55,934 nt of DNA from a virus, in IMG/VR virus record IMGVR_UViG_3300045988_068817. The stretch is one strand, 5' to 3'. Position numbers and translations under genes: made by a program. The notes beneath the pieces were generated by a model. It made no database searches. It was not told the DNA's origin and was given only the letters and a program-made list of their open reading frames with translations. Shown in pieces: positions 1 to 55,934 of the stretch (its first letter is position 1; each line of letters begins with the position of its first letter).

Positions 1-75
1 CCAAGCTGCGTGAACATCGTCACCTGTTCCATGAACGCCTTGTACTCTTTCGACTGGTGTTTTTCGTCAAGGAAA
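1..75. repeat. Terminal direct repeat copy A, identical to 55860..55934 (circular assembly overlap)
   Basis: All 75 bases match at the two window ends. The terL reading frame runs without interruption through the junction. Confidence 0.95.
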
Positions 76-2570
76 TAAAATCGTTTGATGTCCGGCGCAT
101 ACTGGATGATTCTTGACAGCTTGCTTTGACCACTGGGCGCACGCTGGCTACGGACAGAACAGTGATAGCCTTGCTGCCGGAGCTGGCTGTCCACCACATC
201 ACAGTATTCATCGCCGCCGTTGTTGGCTTCGCCACGCACTACGTTGATTTTATGCTGGATAATTTTGCCCACGACTTCCGGCCTAGTCACGGTCTTATCG
301 CCGTTATTGAACACAAGGTCAGGGATGAACACGGCATCGCCGTACACATAGGCGATAGGACAGGCGGTGAAATCTCCGCCGCCCCATGCAATATCCATGA
401 CCATTAGCTTGCGATCAGGCTCTCCATCAGGAAGAACGCCGTTGAAATACCGCAGTTCATCGGCAGGGAAAAGCAGACCTTCACGCACATAGGGCTTGCC
501 CATGTACTTCGCCCACCATGTTGCATCGTCAATGCTGGCTTTCATGTCGGCATAGTAGGCATCGTCAAAGCCCACGCCGTAGTCATAATTGAAGTTGCTG
601 TGTCCGTTCTCGTCCACCGCAGGGATGACCCGGAACCGATACTTCGGATTATCCGCATACTGGTTCTGGATGCGCCCCAGAGGGTCAAGCACGTTCCAGC
701 GTGTACCGACCATCAGTTCCAATGCGCCCTGCTTTTTACGGTCTTTCAGCTGGTTCAAGTAGGCATCGTACTTGTTGTTCAGGCGCTCAACGTTCAGGCT
801 CTCCTCCAAGTCCTCAATCAAGTCATCGCTGTACAGAACACCGCCCTCTCCAATTTCAACAGCACCAGTCAACGTGCCGCCAATGGAGCGGCAAGTAAGG
901 GTAGGAAAACGCTTTTTACGGTTCAGGTCAACGCTTTCGTCCTTTGCGCTCTTATCCACAAGCTGAACGTCCGGGAAGATTTTCCCCCAGTTATAGGTAA
1001 CGGGGTCAGTGATGATAGACAGCACTTCGCCGTAGAAGCCGTTTGTCAGCTTGTCAGAGTGCCCGCTCATAACTGATGCAACGTCAGGACGGTTGCCCAT
1101 CAGCCATGTGATGAAAAAGATGCACAGAGTACTGTTATGGGTTGGAATCAGCCGCTTCCCAGCGCAGTACACGCCACCCTCAACCTGAATGCAGTTGCCC
1201 TGCTTCGGCTCGATGCGTTCAAACCTGCAAAACGCCACACGGCGAGGTTTGGAGAACTCCTTTAGCTGCTTGCGAGGAACAACGCAGGGAATAGGGCAGG
1301 TAGGATTAAAAGAGATGGAATAGACTGTCAGATTGCCTTTAATGCCACTAGACGATACACGAGGTGGATATTCAACCACACTACATCTCCATCCAAAGGT
1401 AGAAACCAGCGTGACAAAATCATCTCTCATTTTCGGCTCTGTGGTAGAAAAAGCGTACCGATGCTCTTTTACCCGTAACGTACCGTCTGTATCGAGCAGA
1501 CCAGCAAGCAATTCCATACGCTGTGCAATGCTGGCTGTAAAGTATTCTTCTGGGATATGCTTCACGCAGCGGCGGTGACTATGGCACATATCGCCTTTTT
1601 GAAGTGCTTGTCGCAAACCAGAGAATCCGTAGTACTCAACACCGGTGTCCTTGTGAACCGTATGCCAACTAACCGGGTATCCATCGTTAATGACGCGCTC
1701 GACAATCACTCGATCACAAGGAGGTTCACAAATATCCGGGTGCTGATTGCGACCATCGCCAAGCCATGCGCCCAATGTGTACGGCTCAACAGGCAGTTTC
1801 TTATATTCTCCCTCGACAAAATTTTTGAACGGAACCTGATAGCAGAATCTTATACCGTCCTTTGTGTCGGCAACATAATCCTCCATCATCCGCTTAGTTT
1901 CGACAACATCAAATCCGTTCTTATGGCGGTTAAAGACCGGCCACTCGTGGTTTTCGTGGCAGTCAATGTATGTGCCGTCAGAGAAATGGCAACGCACATC
2001 AAGCTGGCACTTAGGCGAAACGGCCAGCACTTTTACAAACTGACCTTTCGGGCTGATAACTTCATCGCCGACCTGCAAATCGCCGTGATTCTTCCAGCCA
2101 CTTCTCGTTAAAATCGGCGTATCATCACTCAAAGCCTTGCCAACGCGAGCAGGTAAACTAACTCCCAAAAAGTCAATCCGCTTATAAAACAAATCCTCTA
2201 GGTCATCCGCCAGCACTTTCAAAACCCTGCGTCTAGGCTGATAGAACTTCTTCTCCGGCGCACGATTCCATTCAAGGTAGATGCAATAGCTGTCGAACAC
2301 ATCTTTTGCTTCAAACAGGTACGTTCGGCTGATAATGTCATAGACCTTCGCTACGTCCTCGCCTGTTTTCATCTTGCCCATCATGGCTGCACAGACAGAG
2401 CGCAGCTCGCCAGAGTATTTGTAGGCATCGAACCGCTTATCTTGCGGCAGGGCATCTCTCAGGTTCACCACCGCCTGAAACCAGTCCTCATAGACCTGTG
2501 CTTCGGTCGGATTCTGCTTCGCATACGCTTTGATGCTGTCAATGATGGCGATACACTGCTTTGGCTGCAT
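1..2570 (-). CDS. terL: Terminase large subunit precursor, first 2570 nt. The ORF exits at base 1 and continues at 55859..55760. Total 889 codons including a 334-codon intein.
   Basis: The minus-strand frame from ATG 2568-2570 has no stop down to base 1. It is missing from the ORF track because it runs off the window. Hand translation shows FYQPRRRV, a Walker A PARVGK/ST split by the intein, Walker B VLYSDDLIED, MVGTRW, and the nuclease half MVMDIAWGGGDF. Confidence 0.9.
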   Translation of the reverse strand, partial: MQPKQCIAIIDSIKAYAKQNPTEAQVYEDWFQAVVNLRDALPQDKRFDAYKYSGELRSVCAAMMGKMKTGEDVAKVYDIISRTYLFEAKDVFDSYCIYLEWNRAPEKKFYQPRRRVLKVLADDLEDLFYKRIDFLGVSLPARVGKALSDDTPILTRSGWKNHGDLQVGDEVISPKGQFVKVLAVSPKCQLDVRCHFSDGTYIDCHENHEWPVFNRHKNGFDVVETKRMMEDYVADTKDGIRFCYQVPFKNFVEGEYKKLPVEPYTLGAWLGDGRNQHPDICEPPCDRVIVERVINDGYPVSWHTVHKDTGVEYYGFSGLRQALQKGDMCHSHRRCVKHIPEEYFTASIAQRMELLAGLLDTDGTLRVKEHRYAFSTTEPKMRDDFVTLVSTFGWRCSVVEYPPRVSSSGIKGNLTVYSISFNPTCPIPCVVPRKQLKEFSKPRRVAFCRFERIEPKQGNCIQVEGGVYCAGKRLIPTHNSTLCIFFITWLMGNRPDVASVMSGHSDKLTNGFYGEVLSIITDPVTYNWGKIFPDVQLVDKSAKDESVDLNRKKRFPTLTCRSIGGTLTGAVEIGEGGVLYSDDLIEDLEESLNVERLNNKYDAYLNQLKDRKKQGALELMVGTRWNVLDPLGRIQNQYADNPKYRFRVIPAVDENGHSNFNYDYGVGFDDAYYADMKASIDDATWWAKYMGKPYVREGLLFPADELRYFNGVLPDGEPDRKLMVMDIAWGGGDFTACPIAYVYGDAVFIPDLVFNNGDKTVTRPEVVGKIIQHKINVVRGEANNGGDEYCDVVDSQLRQQGYHCSVRSQRAPSGQSKLSRIIQYAPDIKRFYFLDEKHQSKEYKAFMEQVTMFTQL
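1134..2135 (-). mobile_element. Intein (334 codons) with a LAGLIDADG homing endonuclease domain, inserted in the TerL P-loop between GK and ST
   Basis: Block A-like ALSDDTPILTRSGW; block B IDCHENHEW; LAGLIDADG motifs PYTLGAWLGDG and MELLAGLLDTDG; block F/G GNCIQVEGGVYCAGKRLIPTHN followed by +1 Ser. Removing it restores PARVGKST. Confidence 0.85.
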
Positions 2571-3854: not shown

Positions 3855-4511
3855 TTAGCGGTGGCTTGTGGTTGGGCTACCGCTATTTTTATTTGCGTAT
3901 CTTTCGACACGCTCATACCAAGTGGATTTCCCGATGCCAAGCTGCTTGCAGCACTCTTTTACGGTAATTTTGCCTTTTTGCTGTTGCTCTAATAGGCTTT
4001 CAAATTGCTGCTCGTCAACTTGCTTTTCCTGTCTGCCGAAGCTACGGCCTGTTCTGGCCGACACTCTCTTGCCATCAACAATAGGCATGGCAGCTATGCC
4101 CTCCGCCTGACGTTGCTTGGTTTTCTTGCGTTCCTGTTCAGCTACTGCGCCCAAAACTTCAATAAGGATGTTGTTCACCATTTCCAGCACCCATGTCTGG
4201 TCTTGGAAGTCAATCAGCGTAGTTGGAATGTCAAGGATGCGAACAATCACGCCTTTTTCTTTGAACCACTGAAGTTCTCGCTTCATCTCATCTTTGTCAC
4301 GCCCGAATCGGTCAAATTCCTTAACAATGACCTCATCCCCAGCCTTGACAGTCTCTTTCAATCGTTTATATTGCGGGCGATCAAAGCTGCTGCCTGTCAT
4401 TTTATCACAAAATACATTCTCGTCTGGGATGTCGAACCGGTCTCGTGCGATTTTAAGCTGTCTTGCAAGGCTTTGCTCCTTACTAGACACTCTAGCTAAG
4501 AAGTACTGCAT
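3855..4511 (-). CDS. Small serine recombinase (resolvase/invertase family) with a C-terminal HTH
   Basis: N-terminal YFLARVSSKEQS catalytic-Ser motif, a DRFGRD segment, and the C-terminal HTH ITVKECCKQLGIGKSTWYERV. Confidence 0.85.
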   Translation of the reverse strand: MQYFLARVSSKEQSLARQLKIARDRFDIPDENVFCDKMTGSSFDRPQYKRLKETVKAGDEVIVKEFDRFGRDKDEMKRELQWFKEKGVIVRILDIPTTLIDFQDQTWVLEMVNNILIEVLGAVAEQERKKTKQRQAEGIAAMPIVDGKRVSARTGRSFGRQEKQVDEQQFESLLEQQQKGKITVKECCKQLGIGKSTWYERVERYANKNSGSPTTSHR

Positions 4512-11773: not shown

Positions 11774-12997
11774 TTACATCCACACGCATTCTTTGAACTG
11801 CTGGGTCTCCATCTGGAACGTGATGTCCAGTGACCCCACGTTGCCCTCTTTGTTCTTCTCAAGCGCAAAGTGATAATGCTGCTCTGGTCTCTTTTTCGTA
11901 GTCACGTTCTGCGCCAGAAGAATGATTGCATCTGCGTCCTGCTCAATCTGTCCGCTCTCTCGCAGGTCTGCGGCAGTCGGTGGAATACCTGTTCTTGCTG
12001 TCTCTCGATTGAGCTGTGCAAGTGCTACCACCAGCGTTCCTGTGGACTGTGCGAACTCATGCAGTGCCATGCTGATTTCCGTGACGGCACTGTATCGGTC
12101 TTTCGCTCCGGCTTGATGGATAAGCTGCAAATAGTCGATGAACACCGCTTTTGCCTGCATCCTGATGGACTGTGTTCTAATCCACCCAACGCCCTTACCA
12201 GCGGCAGAGCGCACGAACAGTGGATATTTCTTGGTGGCTGCCAGCCGGTCAAGTTCGTTAATGCTGACGGTCTTGTTTTTGACCGTGTGCAGTGGTACGC
12301 CTAGCTGATTTGCAATAATACGGGCATAGAGCGTATCCGGGTCGGTCTCTAGGCTAAAATATGCTACCTTGCGTCCGTTCTTGGCTATTTCACAGGCAAG
12401 TTGCAGGGACAGGGCAGTTTTACCGGCAGACGGTCTGCCGCCGATCACAACGAAGTTTCCCGGCACAAGATGCAAGTTGTTATCCAGCACTCTAAGCCCT
12501 GTGCTGATATACTCCGGCTTATCATCCAGCTTGCGGATGTAGTTGTCTATGCCATCGCACATTGGGATAAAATCGTTTCTCTCGCTGTGCAGGTTGATAG
12601 CTTCGCCTAGCTGCTCATAGATGCCTGTCAGGTCTGCGTATCTGGTCGAGCCATCAACGATTTTGAACGCAAGCTCTCTGGCTCTGGACAACGCTGCCTG
12701 TTCCTTGATGATTCCAGCCCATCCAAGCATCATGTCATGGGTGACGTTGCGGATGAACTCTGCACCGAAGGCATCCAGACATTCACCCATTGCTTTTTTG
12801 CAGTTATCGTACCGTCCCATGACTTCTACCGGGTTCCACTTGTCATTGTGTTCCCAATATCCGAGAATGGCAGCGAATGTATCATGCAGTTCAGGGCAGA
12901 AATCGTCGATTTTAAGGTCTTGCAGCACATCGGCGTACTCCGAGAACGTGAGGACTGCCCCCAGCAGGATGTATTGGGTCTGATTTTCAATATTCAC
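11774..12997 (-). CDS. dnaB: Replicative DNA helicase, DnaB family
   Basis: Walker A GGRPSAGKTALSLQLA, FSLE, VFIDYLQL, and LAQLNRE arginine-finger region. Confidence 0.9.
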   Translation of the reverse strand: MNIENQTQYILLGAVLTFSEYADVLQDLKIDDFCPELHDTFAAILGYWEHNDKWNPVEVMGRYDNCKKAMGECLDAFGAEFIRNVTHDMMLGWAGIIKEQAALSRARELAFKIVDGSTRYADLTGIYEQLGEAINLHSERNDFIPMCDGIDNYIRKLDDKPEYISTGLRVLDNNLHLVPGNFVVIGGRPSAGKTALSLQLACEIAKNGRKVAYFSLETDPDTLYARIIANQLGVPLHTVKNKTVSINELDRLAATKKYPLFVRSAAGKGVGWIRTQSIRMQAKAVFIDYLQLIHQAGAKDRYSAVTEISMALHEFAQSTGTLVVALAQLNRETARTGIPPTAADLRESGQIEQDADAIILLAQNVTTKKRPEQHYHFALEKNKEGNVGSLDITFQMETQQFKECVWM

Positions 12998-50422: not shown

Positions 50423-51499
50423 TTAGTAAGCCTTGATGCAGTACACAGCGTCCATGCGCTCAAAGGACGGCAGGACGATTTCGGAGACGTAGATGTTGGT
50501 GTTGACAGGATGCACGGTCTGCTCGGTGGTAACAGCAACGCCAGTGTTCACAACGGAAACCTGTGCGTTGGAGATGCCAGCCATCAGGTCGGCTTCCTCA
50601 GGGGTGGCAACATAGTACATATTGCCAAGAGAGCCAGAAGGAGCCAGCACGACATAGCCATCAGGAAGATACTTTTCGGCAGCAGCGGTCTCCTCCGGCT
50701 TGTACATCTTGTCGTACAGATGGATACGAATACCGGATGCGGCTTCGACAACGGAACGTGCTTCGGAATCAACCAGCACAGCAGTGGTGGTCTTCATAAC
50801 CGTCAGGAACCGGTTCTTGATTTCATCCGCAGCAATCATCTTGTGGAAAGTGCTGGTGTTCATGTAGGCATCGGTGATAATCTCACCAGTGTTTGCCAGC
50901 ACGGTGTTTGCGGCAGTGGTCATCGTGGCGATGGGGGTTGCAGTAGTAGGAGCATCCCACTTCTCCTTGGTAGCCAGAGCCTTGTAATTGGACTGCTGCC
51001 AAGTGCCGTCAGGGTCGTAATCGTAGACGTAACTCACGCCATTGGATTCGATGGAGATGCCGGGCTTACCAGTCTTGGGAGCCAGAAGCTGCCACACCAT
51101 ACGCTCAGGAACGATGCGTGCGCCAGTGATAAGCTGTGCGGTATCATCGTAGACACGATTGATAACATCTGCCGCAAACTCCTGATTGGTAGCCAGAACA
51201 GAGATAATCTTGCGGCGGTCTTCCTCGTCAATGTGAGTGCCCTCGCGGAAGAACGGCATACTGGTCTCGGTCATTTTGATGCCCTGACGAGTACGGAACG
51301 TAGCCTTAGTGTCAAACACGCTAGGCTTCAGCGAAACGCCAACGCCCTTGTGACCACGCAGCCACTTCAGTTCCATGCTGACTTTCTTACGGGCAGGGAA
51401 CAGAGCATCAGAAGCATAGGGCTGCGCATTGGTCGGGTCATTCGTCCAGTAGGCGGCAATCGCAGCAGGGGAGAAGATTTCATTCAGATTCAGTGCCAT
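50423..51499 (-). CDS. Major capsid protein (lambda gpE-like family), 358 aa
   Basis: Starts MALNLNEIFSPAAIAAYW ... DALFPARKKVSMELKWLRG. Its size and the adjacent decoration-like gene also fit. Confidence 0.8.
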   Translation of the reverse strand: MALNLNEIFSPAAIAAYWTNDPTNAQPYASDALFPARKKVSMELKWLRGHKGVGVSLKPSVFDTKATFRTRQGIKMTETSMPFFREGTHIDEEDRRKIISVLATNQEFAADVINRVYDDTAQLITGARIVPERMVWQLLAPKTGKPGISIESNGVSYVYDYDPDGTWQQSNYKALATKEKWDAPTTATPIATMTTAANTVLANTGEIITDAYMNTSTFHKMIAADEIKNRFLTVMKTTTAVLVDSEARSVVEAASGIRIHLYDKMYKPEETAAAEKYLPDGYVVLAPSGSLGNMYYVATPEEADLMAGISNAQVSVVNTGVAVTTEQTVHPVNTNIYVSEIVLPSFERMDAVYCIKAY

Positions 51500-53301: not shown

Positions 53302-54816
53302 CTATTCGCCCTCTGTTTCTTTATTGGTATCGGCAGACTGTTTGTTTGCCATGTTCCCGGCATTTGTGTCGGCAGCGTCCTGTTTAGGCTGTTCCTGCGG
53401 CTTCGGTGCTTTCCCATCCTCTCCCAGCTTGCCAGCGGAAATCAGAAACGGCTTGCTCATTTCATAAGCAGCCTGCGGGTCAGGGAACAGGCCGGGCGTA
53501 GTGAACGCCAACTGCGGGTCAATGGTCTGCTGCAACATCTGTGCAAAAATCTGAACCTTGCTCTGCTGGTTGTCGTACTGGCGGCGGGGCAGTTTGATGT
53601 TGATGTCACTTGCCATCAGCTTAGAACCAGCCGTATCACGCAGGATTTTCAGCATTACAGACAGGCTTTGGCGTTCCGAGAACTTGAACATATTCTCGTA
53701 CTGCTGCGCCCTTGCTTCGGTATGGTTCCAGCCATTGCGAACGATGACTGCGCCCACGTTGTCGGACGTTGCGTTCTCGCTACCAGTGGCACTAGGCATA
53801 GCGGTCAGACTGCGATACACGTTCAACATGGAATCAAGCAAGGTCTGGCTCTGCTGCTGGTCAAGCTCGTTTGCAATCTGCGAAACAGACGCAGGCAGAC
53901 TAGAAGTGGATTTCAGGCACATTGCGCCAAGTTCTTTTACTTGATCGAGAGCATCCTTGTCCACAAGGCAGTTGGTAAACACCATGATGGACTGAATGAA
54001 CTGCGCCACACCGTCCAGACGGTTGCTTTCAAGGTCGTTGATGGCATCCAGAACAGGGATAGCCGGTTCAAACAAGCCCATGCGCTCCGGGTTGAGCTTG
54101 TATTCGACCATCGGCAGCATTCCAAGAGAATGGCTTTCCGACTTCGTAACCTTGCCGTTGTCGATTTCAAAGTACTGGTTCGGCGTGTACACGCAAATCA
54201 GGTCGTTCAGGTCGTTCTGATAATTGCGAGGAATGTGCAGCACGTTGGCGATGGGCTTATGCCCGATGCCGGAGTTGTAAATCACATACGCCATATCCGG
54301 GTCTGGAACATCTATCAGCAGGGGCGTTTCGTCCGGGTAGTTGCCGTTGTATCCCTTGTCAGGAAGAACAATGCGGTATCCCTGTCCGCACTCCAACATC
54401 CACTGCCAGAGCCGCCGATCAAGAGCATCCTTGCCCTCATACTGCAAAGCATTGGACAGGCGGGCGATTTCCTCACCGTCACCAGTTGCCGTTTCAGACC
54501 GCACATAAGAGCAGGGAGTGCCGCTCATATAGCCTGTGTAGAAGCCCACGCACTCGTTGGCATGGTTCTCTACAATGCGGTTGGTGATTTCAGCGTGGTA
54601 CTCCTTTGTGCGGTGGAGGACAGGCTGACTACCCAAGTAGTAGTTGTGCAGAAAACGAATCTCGTTCTTATTCAGCAGATGAATAGGCTCTGCCTTGCCC
54701 ATGACCACTTTCAGCACGTTCGTCTGATTGATCTCCGTCTCCGGCGTTTCAATCGGTCTACGTCCGGTCAGCGGGTCATTCAAGAAGCCGTTAATAACCA
54801 TCTGATACTCAGCCAT
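53302..54816 (-). CDS. Portal protein (SPP1 gp6-like), 504 aa
   Basis: GGAAAGGAGGAA RBS. Also supported by size, position and an acidic C-terminus. Confidence 0.85.
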   Translation of the reverse strand: MAEYQMVINGFLNDPLTGRRPIETPETEINQTNVLKVVMGKAEPIHLLNKNEIRFLHNYYLGSQPVLHRTKEYHAEITNRIVENHANECVGFYTGYMSGTPCSYVRSETATGDGEEIARLSNALQYEGKDALDRRLWQWMLECGQGYRIVLPDKGYNGNYPDETPLLIDVPDPDMAYVIYNSGIGHKPIANVLHIPRNYQNDLNDLICVYTPNQYFEIDNGKVTKSESHSLGMLPMVEYKLNPERMGLFEPAIPVLDAINDLESNRLDGVAQFIQSIMVFTNCLVDKDALDQVKELGAMCLKSTSSLPASVSQIANELDQQQSQTLLDSMLNVYRSLTAMPSATGSENATSDNVGAVIVRNGWNHTEARAQQYENMFKFSERQSLSVMLKILRDTAGSKLMASDINIKLPRRQYDNQQSKVQIFAQMLQQTIDPQLAFTTPGLFPDPQAAYEMSKPFLISAGKLGEDGKAPKPQEQPKQDAADTNAGNMANKQSADTNKETEGE

Positions 54817-54907
54817 GTGTTCCTCCTTTCCGGCAAAATAAAAAGCGCAGCAAGACAAACCTGTTAAGGTCTATCTCACTGCGCCAAAACTGCGCTTCAA
54901 AAGCTAT

Positions 54908-55759: not shown

Positions 55760-55934
55760 TCAAAATGGCCTCTTGACAGGCTCAATTTTACTGATTCCGT
55801 TGTACAGTTCATCGGCAAGCTGTGCCAGACTGTCCGGTGCATCATCGTGCGGAACTTTTCCAAGCTGCGTGAACATCGTCACCTGTTCCATGAACGCCTT
55901 GTACTCTTTCGACTGGTGTTTTTCGTCAAGGAAA
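55760..55934 (-). CDS. terL: Terminase large subunit, C-terminal end (75 nt redundant with 1..75 plus 100 unique nt, stop TGA at 55760-55762)
   Basis: The frame continues from base 1 across the junction: ...TQLGKVPHDDAPDSLAQLADELYNGISKIEPVKRPF*. Confidence 0.88.
   Translation of the reverse strand, partial: FLDEKHQSKEYKAFMEQVTMFTQLGKVPHDDAPDSLAQLADELYNGISKIEPVKRPF
55860..55934. repeat. Terminal direct repeat copy B, identical to 1..75
   Basis: Same 75-nt string as the window start. Confidence 0.95.

Follow-up and report, generated by a model that had tools for sequence, protein, structure and literature searches.

A putative class 3 intein with a nested LAGLIDADG endonuclease in the terminase P-loop of a human gut phage

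When class 3 inteins were defined in 2010, phage terminase large subunits were among their hosts and most such inteins were found in an ATPase P-loop (PMC2807308). The GK/T position of the P-loop (the slash marks the point of insertion) is a classic insertion site, and class 3 inteins are present in the terminase large subunit (TerL) of mycobacteriophages; in gp10 of mycobacteriophage Bethlehem (site TerL1-c), an intein with a LAGLIDADG endonuclease splices and cuts the intein-free partner allele (Kelley et al. 2016, PMC5050341). A more recent study described 287 class 3 inteins from actinobacteriophages, for the most part in TerL and Cas4, with APunk as the representative (bioRxiv 10.1101/2025.01.02.630785, 2025). 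Inteins of this class have therefore been on record from the TerL P-loops of phages since 2010, and the case presented here adds no new mechanism. Here we describe the TerL gene of the virus record IMGVR_UViG_3300045988_068817, whose whole 55,934-nt stretch of DNA is referred to as the window. The Walker A loop of this protein is interrupted by an insert of 334 amino acids (1134..2135, minus strand) that is very probably a bifunctional intein of the less common class 3, spliced by the class 3 route and spread by homing through its own endonuclease.

The translation of the minus strand from the ATG at 2570 contains, in order, ALSDDTPILTRSGW, IDCHENHEWPVF, PYTLGAWLGDG, MELLAGLLDTDG and GNCIQVEGGVYCAGKRLIPTHN, after which the extein resumes with STLCIFF. 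The insert comprises residues 146-479 of the precursor and splits the P-loop in frame between Lys145 and the Ser of Walker A (GK/ST). When its 334 codons are removed, TerL reads ...GVSLPARVGKSTLCIFF..., with the junction ...GVSLPARVGK/STLCIFFITWLMG..., and this is what intein-free relatives encode. A clean 334-residue gap at GK/ST is observed in four intein-free GenBank relatives, namely two faecal scaffolds with TerL identities of 99% and 90%, a third scaffold at 50%, and Clostridium phage Maintenon, the closest cultured TerL relative, at ~51%. In IMG/VR, 580 relatives were found, of which the best 80 were retrieved; in every one of these the C-extein protein is identical to that of the window over all 410 residues. 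Among these 80 genomes, 67 lack the insert and have a clean gap at GK/ST, and 13 carry an insert at the same point (334 amino acids in four, 336 in nine). The N-extein ends in Gly-Lys in every one of the 80 and is 145 amino acids long in 78. An in-frame insertion in a conserved host protein that is precisely missing from close homologues is a hallmark of inteins, and the insert shows it. The preliminary description had read the open reading frame (ORF) from ATG 2570 and placed a 334-codon insert at 1134..2135; all of the strings it quoted are exact in the translation of 2570..3 (minus strand), its boundaries hold to the base, and the gap that it predicted in intein-free homologues is present in both the GenBank and the IMG/VR sets. 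No second intein was found in the window by family-based hidden Markov model (HMM) search.

Two faecal scaffolds in GenBank, MT839459.1 (L001) and MT839348.1 (L002), have differing deletions in the N-extein, immediately before the codons of the P-loop. One of them breaks the reading frame and the other removes 44 codons; the 3' edge is common to both. These deletions are probably assembly artefacts, since they occur in none of the 80 IMG/VR loci and both GenBank records are labelled 'UNVERIFIED'.

The gene that carries the insert is not contained in one piece at the left end of the window. Positions 1..75 are repeated exactly at 55860..55934, and this 75-nt terminal direct repeat identifies the window as a circular contig with an assembly overlap (unique length 55,859 nt), so genes cut by its ends, TerL included, resume at the opposite end. 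The first 856 codons of the TerL precursor gene lie at 1..2570 (minus strand), and the end of the gene lies at 55760..55934 (minus strand), where 55860..55934 repeats positions 1..75, the final 33 codons occupy 55763..55859 and the stop codon is at 55760..55762. The in-frame continuation past the junction, ...FTQLGKVPHDDAPDSLAQLADELYNGISKIEPVKRPF followed by the stop, agrees with the C-termini of homologues. The completed gene encodes a precursor of 889 amino acids and a spliced, mature TerL of 555 amino acids. It had been noted earlier that the ORF leaves the window, which is true of the left end; on the circular contig, it is completed at 55859..55760 by its 33 remaining codons and the stop. 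TerL is missing from the program-made ORF list because ORFs that touch an end of the source are omitted there.

The assignment of the gene as TerL was borne out as well. PHROG 38 (terminase large subunit) matches the full precursor protein with an E-value of 1e-46, the Pfam family Terminase-T7_RNaseH-like matches the spliced sequence with 27.0 bits, equal to its cut-off, and the T7-type nuclease domain of NCBIfam also matches. The protein therefore presents the features of a terminase large subunit, with an N-terminal P-loop ATPase, a C-terminal RNase H-like nuclease and a portal gene nearby. The N-extein (residues 1-145; 2136..2570, minus strand) ends in the Walker A residues LPARVGK, and the C-extein starts with STLCIFF and contains the remainder of the ATPase together with the nuclease domain (its first 377 of 410 codons at 3..1133, minus strand). 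Removal of the insert was claimed to rebuild a canonical Walker A motif; the P-loop is indeed restored, but its form is the deviant one of terminases, L-P-A-R-V-G-K-S, with no Gly or Ala at the first position.

Sequence comparison of the insert against solved structures (phmmer against the PDB) identifies as best match the class 3 DnaB intein 1 of M. smegmatis, 6BS8 (E 9e-10), with the DnaB-1 intein of Mycobacterium chimaera, 6RIX (also 6RIY), at E 1.5e-8; three DnaB inteins match the insert at both termini. Chance similarity cannot account for matches of this strength. Block A of the insert, ALSDDTPILTRSG (2097..2135, minus strand), aligns with ALALDTPLPTPSG of 6BS8, and ALSDDTPILTRSGW aligns with ALALDTPLPTPSGW of the same protein. 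Residue 1 is Ala (GCT; precursor residue 146), which makes this an intein without an N-terminal nucleophile. Block B (1935..1976, minus strand) supplies His60 (B:7), His63 (B:10) and Trp65 (B:12), and its HEW aligns with H65-Q-W67 of 6BS8. Block F (1155..1202, minus strand) contains Cys315 (F:4; TGC at 1191..1193), the predicted initiating nucleophile, and its NCIQVE aligns with RC118VEVD. Block G (1131..1154, minus strand) comprises Thr332 (G:5), His333 (G:6) and Asn334 (G:7) together with the +1 residue, Ser480 of the precursor (AGT at 1131..1133), and its PTHN aligns with PT137-H138-N139. Trp65, Cys315 and Thr332 are thus aligned residue for residue with W67, C118 and T137 of 6BS8, which constitute the class 3 Trp-Cys-Thr (WCT) triplet of that intein and of which C118, when changed to Ala, abolishes splicing (PMC6195587).

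To which splicing class does this arrangement correspond? Position 1 holds none of Cys, Ser or Thr, the WCT triplet is complete and the +1 residue is Ser, which is the class 3 pattern (Tori et al. 2010); the published definition has Ser or Thr, and in rare cases Cys, at +1 (PMC2807308). The C-terminus is likewise that of an intein, with His333-Asn334 followed by a Ser nucleophile at +1. The pattern does not fit class 2 (KlbA-type), given that the triplet is there and that +1 is Ser. The class 3 signature of Ala1, Trp, Cys and Thr read in the preliminary description stands.

Moreover, the signature is a property of the whole family. In a collection of 5.8 billion proteins, 184 match the insert at E<=1e-5, and 120 of these were retrieved for residue counts, the denominators of which vary by position. 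The B:10 His and B:12 Trp are invariant (114/114), as are the F:4 Cys, G:5 Thr, G:6 His and G:7 Asn (86/86). At +1, 84 of 86 homologues have Ser and two have Thr. Position 1 is Ala in 81 of 111, followed by Leu (20), Gln (6), Glu (2), Lys (1) and Asn (1), and no homologue has Cys, Ser or Thr there. Block B has the pattern HxxH in 46/114 homologues (the clade of the window intein) and DxxH in 64/114 (mycobacterial class 3), TxxH being the class 1 pattern; Cys59 (B:6) is conserved within the gut-phage clade, and the intein holds 14 cysteines in total.

Members of the same family, at 30-48% identity and with the full WCT signature, also follow Gly-Lys in phage DnaB-like/AAA_25 helicases, actinobacterial DnaB and many bacterial dCTP deaminases (LEGK/ALALDTP...THN/SSLG); proteins with these other hosts include P0013, P0016, P0055-P0120 and P0108. 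This distribution suggests that the intein family has switched repeatedly between hosts that share a GK/S coding site.

Nested within the splicing domain is a second module. The LAGLIDADG endonuclease core (residues 124-260; 1356..1766, minus strand) matches PI-SceI and is the exact segment lost in a natural derivative described below. Motif 1, LGAWLGD127G (1752..1784, minus strand), ends in Asp127, and motif 2, LAGLLDTD217G (1482..1517, minus strand), ends in Asp217, with the block D Lys192 between the two. The endonuclease domain of PI-SceI matches the insert by sequence (E 2e-6, phmmer against the PDB). The motif Asp residues are conserved in 111/112 (motif 1) and 107/107 (motif 2) homologues; in an 80-sequence alignment both are invariant and Lys192 is conserved in at least 90%.

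Structure prediction is consistent with this assignment. An AlphaFold prediction without an alignment had a predicted local distance difference test (pLDDT) value of 34 and was replaced by an AlphaFold 2 (AF2) model based on the 80-sequence alignment, with a pLDDT of 93.4 and a predicted template modelling score (pTM) of 0.91. The top Foldseek match of the AF2 model is PI-SceI (E 8e-17, TM 0.70). Further matches are TliVMA, PhoVMA and PI-PfuI, which like PI-SceI are inteins with an endonuclease, the class 3 inteins 6BS8 and 6RIX, the Hint domains of Prp8 and Hedgehog, and the free-standing LAGLIDADG enzymes I-DmoI and I-Tsp061I. As modelled, a LAGLIDADG endonuclease with two motifs, each ending in an acidic residue, is nested in a Hint splicing domain, and its fold matches known enzymes. 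This architecture is the one put forward in the preliminary description.

Does the intein splice? The C-extein (410 codons) of the window was compared with that of the intein-free scaffold MT839459, and the two differ at a single amino acid despite a synonymous divergence (dS) of 0.46, with a ratio of nonsynonymous to synonymous divergence (dN/dS) of 0.007. Across the 80 IMG/VR genomes with identical C-extein protein, the DNA differs by a median of 7.6%. Within the intein, the splicing domain has a dN/dS of 0.025 relative to a second intein allele; the endonuclease domain has a dN of 0.24 relative to a third allele, with synonymous sites saturated, and it too is under purifying selection. The rationale for connecting these values to splicing is that a TerL unable to shed its insert would not be kept under such constraint. 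Purifying selection on the exteins and on the splicing domain, read from codon comparisons, therefore argues that the intein splices.

The population data bear on mobility. Among the 13 intein-bearing genomes from the best 80 of 580 relatives, at least four intein alleles are found at this one site, with DNA differences of up to 29%, and these genomes are scattered among intein-free ones. When the window is compared with IMGVR_UViG_3300045988_060235, a tract of 1,079 nt (1090..2168, minus strand), comprising the intein with flanks of 33 nt on the N-extein side and 44 nt on the C-extein side, contains one mismatch, whereas the rest of TerL is 6.9% diverged (binomial P 4e-32). Repair of a double-strand break at a homing site would be expected to leave just such a short stretch of identity around the point of insertion, and the tract is, to judge by this pattern, the footprint of recent homing by gene conversion. 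GC content at third codon positions is 0.51 in the intein and 0.62 and 0.64 in the exteins, and the lower value of the intein is consistent with a foreign origin. The intein is thus real and recently mobile.

Loss of the endonuclease is also represented. A copy 98% identical to the intein has an in-frame deletion of 137 amino acids (W124..V260) that removes both LAGLIDADG motifs and leaves a mini-intein of 197 amino acids; 2 nt of microhomology are found at the deletion junction. This copy was recovered from three independent Logan samples, SRR27390212, ERR6406270 and SRR35114395 (L005, 3001-4641; L006; L007), and sits in a TerL that is truncated after ...NFNYDY, beside unrelated genes. The endonuclease-deleted derivative looks like the decay phase of a homing cycle. 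In a further Logan sample (ERR11456926; L008, 2501-4081), a TerL copy with a 336-residue intein allele breaks off 21 residues past the intein and continues into unrelated sequence. An RtcB ligase gene lies directly upstream of this copy, which may represent an element that is rearranged or defective.

The exteins of the population show two further kinds of variation. N-extein residues 114-145 (window 2136..2231), the 32 residues before the insertion, are dimorphic, KVLADDLEDLFYKRIDFLGVSLPARVGK versus LTLVRDLEDLFFHRVEFLGVSQPPRTGK (L014-L093), and both forms occur with and without the intein; outside these residues, the N-extein and the entire C-extein are nearly invariant in protein. The hyper-divergent N-extein segment of L008 (111-145) was considered as a trace of co-conversion and rejected, since the same dimorphism is found in intein-free genomes and is therefore not intein-specific. 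The Ser+1 codon is AGY in the window and in 13/13 intein-bearing IMG/VR alleles, and it is AGT in 41 and TCN in 26 of the intein-free alleles. AGY and TCN codons for Ser cannot be interconverted by one synonymous step. A perfect association of this codon with the intein (AGY in 6/6 alleles with it, TCN in 4/4 without) was refuted, as 41/67 intein-free alleles use AGT; what is left is a weaker association (Fisher 0.007, without correction for relatedness). The TCN alleles may mark a lineage that the intein has never entered or one that withstands the endonuclease.

From these observations we infer the class 3 splicing chemistry as well as the present-day activity and target of the endonuclease, and the scheme follows the published class 3 definition (PMC2807308, PMC5222942). 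The 889-residue precursor would be unable to bind ATP properly until the intein is excised. Splicing would begin when Cys315, placed by His63, Trp65 and Thr332, attacks the Lys145-Ala146 bond to give a thioester-branched intermediate. The N-extein would then be transferred to the Ser+1 hydroxyl, and cyclisation of Asn334, helped by His333, would release the intein. A final O-to-N shift would yield the native Lys-Ser bond and a 555-residue TerL with an intact P-loop. In a co-infection, the endonuclease of the free intein (Asp127, Asp217, Lys192) would cut an intein-free TerL gene at the GK/ST coding site, and repair of the cut allele would copy the intein and a few tens of flanking bases.

Several points weigh against this scheme. 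Pfam and NCBIfam HMM scans gave no significant Hint or intein match, and Pfam LAGLIDADG_3 scored 21.8 bits on the insert against a cut-off of 22.5, 0.7 bits short. One refuting condition named in the preliminary description, the lack of a Hint-domain hit, thus formally occurred for Pfam; the sequence and structure matches in the PDB outweigh it, and the Hint assignment rests on them. The B:7 residue is His (His60; 1956..1958), where 6BS8 has Asp and class 1 inteins have Thr. In addition, the class 2 route is in principle open to inteins that bear the class 3 signature, and only a mutant of Cys F:4 decides between the two (Tori and Perler, PMC5222942). In such a route, Ser+1 would attack the Lys145-Ala146 amide directly and Cys315 would have only a supporting role. 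The Ala1 of the window intein is common to the class 2 KlbA inteins, so the first residue alone fits this proposal; class 2 inteins, however, use Cys+1 and have Asp at F:4. The known class 2 inteins, which are defined by Ala1 and a Cys+1 that attacks directly, lack the WCT triplet (PMC2807308), which is complete and invariant here, with Ser at +1. Every WCT intein tested so far has needed Cys F:4 (PMC2807308, PMC6195587, PMC5222942), and a class 2 route is for these reasons very improbable.

A different objection is that the insert has decayed and does not splice, such that TerL would be a pseudogene of a defective phage. Truncated or rearranged intein-bearing TerL copies do exist elsewhere (P0001/L008; P0005/L005-7, the latter endonuclease-deleted). 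The 889-codon frame of the window, however, is open on a complete circular 55.9-kb genome with portal, capsid and tail genes, all of the catalytic residues are intact, intein-bearing genomes recur in IMG/VR, and the single C-extein difference in 410 residues has persisted against a dS of 0.46; decay is scarcely credible. The question of homing is less one-sided. The identity tract demonstrates recent recombination and does not prove a break made by the intein's own endonuclease. An intein that splices with an inactive endonuclease might persist by vertical descent and by ordinary phage recombination, and endonuclease-free derivatives, the free recombination of phage genomes and the dimorphic TerL N-extein are all compatible with such a history. 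Against it stand the conservation of both metal-binding LAGLIDADG Asp residues and the block D Lys, the purifying selection on the endonuclease domain, and the centring of the tract on the intein with flanks of only 33 and 44 nt, as expected of break repair. We consider this history unlikely and favor an intein that splices by the class 3 route and homes by its own endonuclease.

With ~55.9 kb, the window represents the complete genome of a human-gut phage. The portal gene (53302..54858), the major head gene (50423..51499) and the tail genes are on the same strand as TerL and lie downstream of it across the contig junction. The nearest database relatives of the window are faecal virome scaffolds without annotation. 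The endolysin region has 78% DNA identity to Faecalibacterium phage FP_Lugh, and the sole high-identity match among GTDB genomes is one contig of a Lachnospiraceae metagenome-assembled genome; the host is probably a member of the Clostridia in the human gut. Two genes upstream of TerL, 3855..4511 (minus strand) encodes a small serine recombinase or DNA invertase (PHROG 125, E 8e-40), and relatives carry a 191-residue resolvase gene in this region. A DnaB-like helicase of 407 amino acids at 11774..12997 (minus strand) is without an intein; related inteins target helicase P-loops. Two antisense ORFs within TerL, 1557..2111 (plus strand, 184 amino acids) and 600..1076 (plus strand, 158 amino acids), gave no significant match to any family and are likely to be spurious.

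The nucleophile predicted to initiate splicing is a cysteine inside the intein, a feature shared with the class 3 intein of M. smegmatis DnaB, the splicing of which is inhibited reversibly by oxidants and zinc (6BS8). By analogy, the redox or metal state of the strictly anaerobic gut host may gate TerL maturation and hence packaging, and the TCN codons at Ser+1 together with the dimorphic extein segment next to the P-loop may reflect an arms race over the endonuclease target. We regard this as a rather doubtful hypothesis; if true, the intein would be more than a parasite. A practical consequence is that TerL is easily mis-sized or mis-annotated in this phage group, because the intein escapes both Pfam and gene callers and the contig end splits the gene.

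How does this locus compare with known systems? PI-SceI, the yeast VMA1 intein and the best fold match, shares with the window intein the combination of Hint and double-motif LAGLIDADG domains at a sequence identity of only 13-16%. It is a class 1 intein with Cys1, exceeds the window intein by ~120 amino acids and has an additional region for DNA recognition. M. smegmatis DnaB intein 1 (6BS8) shares Ala1, the P-loop site and the catalytic set, in which W67/C118/T137/H138/N139 correspond to W65/C315/T332/H333/N334. In contrast, it is a mini-intein that has lost its endonuclease (139 versus 334 amino acids), it has DxxH rather than HxxH, and its host is a bacterial helicase. In gut and oral phages already published, the TerL proteins of Bacteroides phage B124-14 and Porphyromonas phage 005b are interrupted at the same GK/S point by inteins with 37-41% identity to that of the window. 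Those inteins have Glu or Gln at residue 1 and share CH-x-x-HEW, GNCIQVEGG and PTHN/S with it, and their exteins belong to other TerL lineages (~30-34% identity to the window's). Both records annotate only 'terminase large subunit', and no paper in the library that was searched mentions an intein in B124-14.

Among the closest precedents are the TerL inteins of actinobacteriophages, which, like the window's, combine a non-nucleophilic residue 1, H-x-W, C and T-H-N motifs and a nested LAGLIDADG domain. In gp2 of Gordonia phage APunk, placed in class 3 in the literature, the TerL insertion is the same, after the P-loop Lys and before Ser-Thr. The APunk intein, however, is only 38% identical to the window's, which has His at B:7 and resides in a TerL of a different family. 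Nothing changes in the knowledge of intein mechanisms. What the analysis adds is the complete gene, joined at the contig junction, together with structural evidence for the Hint and LAGLIDADG domains, evidence of selection and a population-level footprint of recent homing among phages of the human gut. Near-identical TerL proteins without the intein, several alleles, an endonuclease-deleted derivative and a sharply bounded tract make this a natural system for intein homing and decay. APunk and Bethlehem are actinobacteriophages, and the class has been studied mostly in Actinobacteria and their phages; the window phage is from the human gut and probably infects Clostridia, so a well-supported case now comes from phages of human-gut anaerobes.

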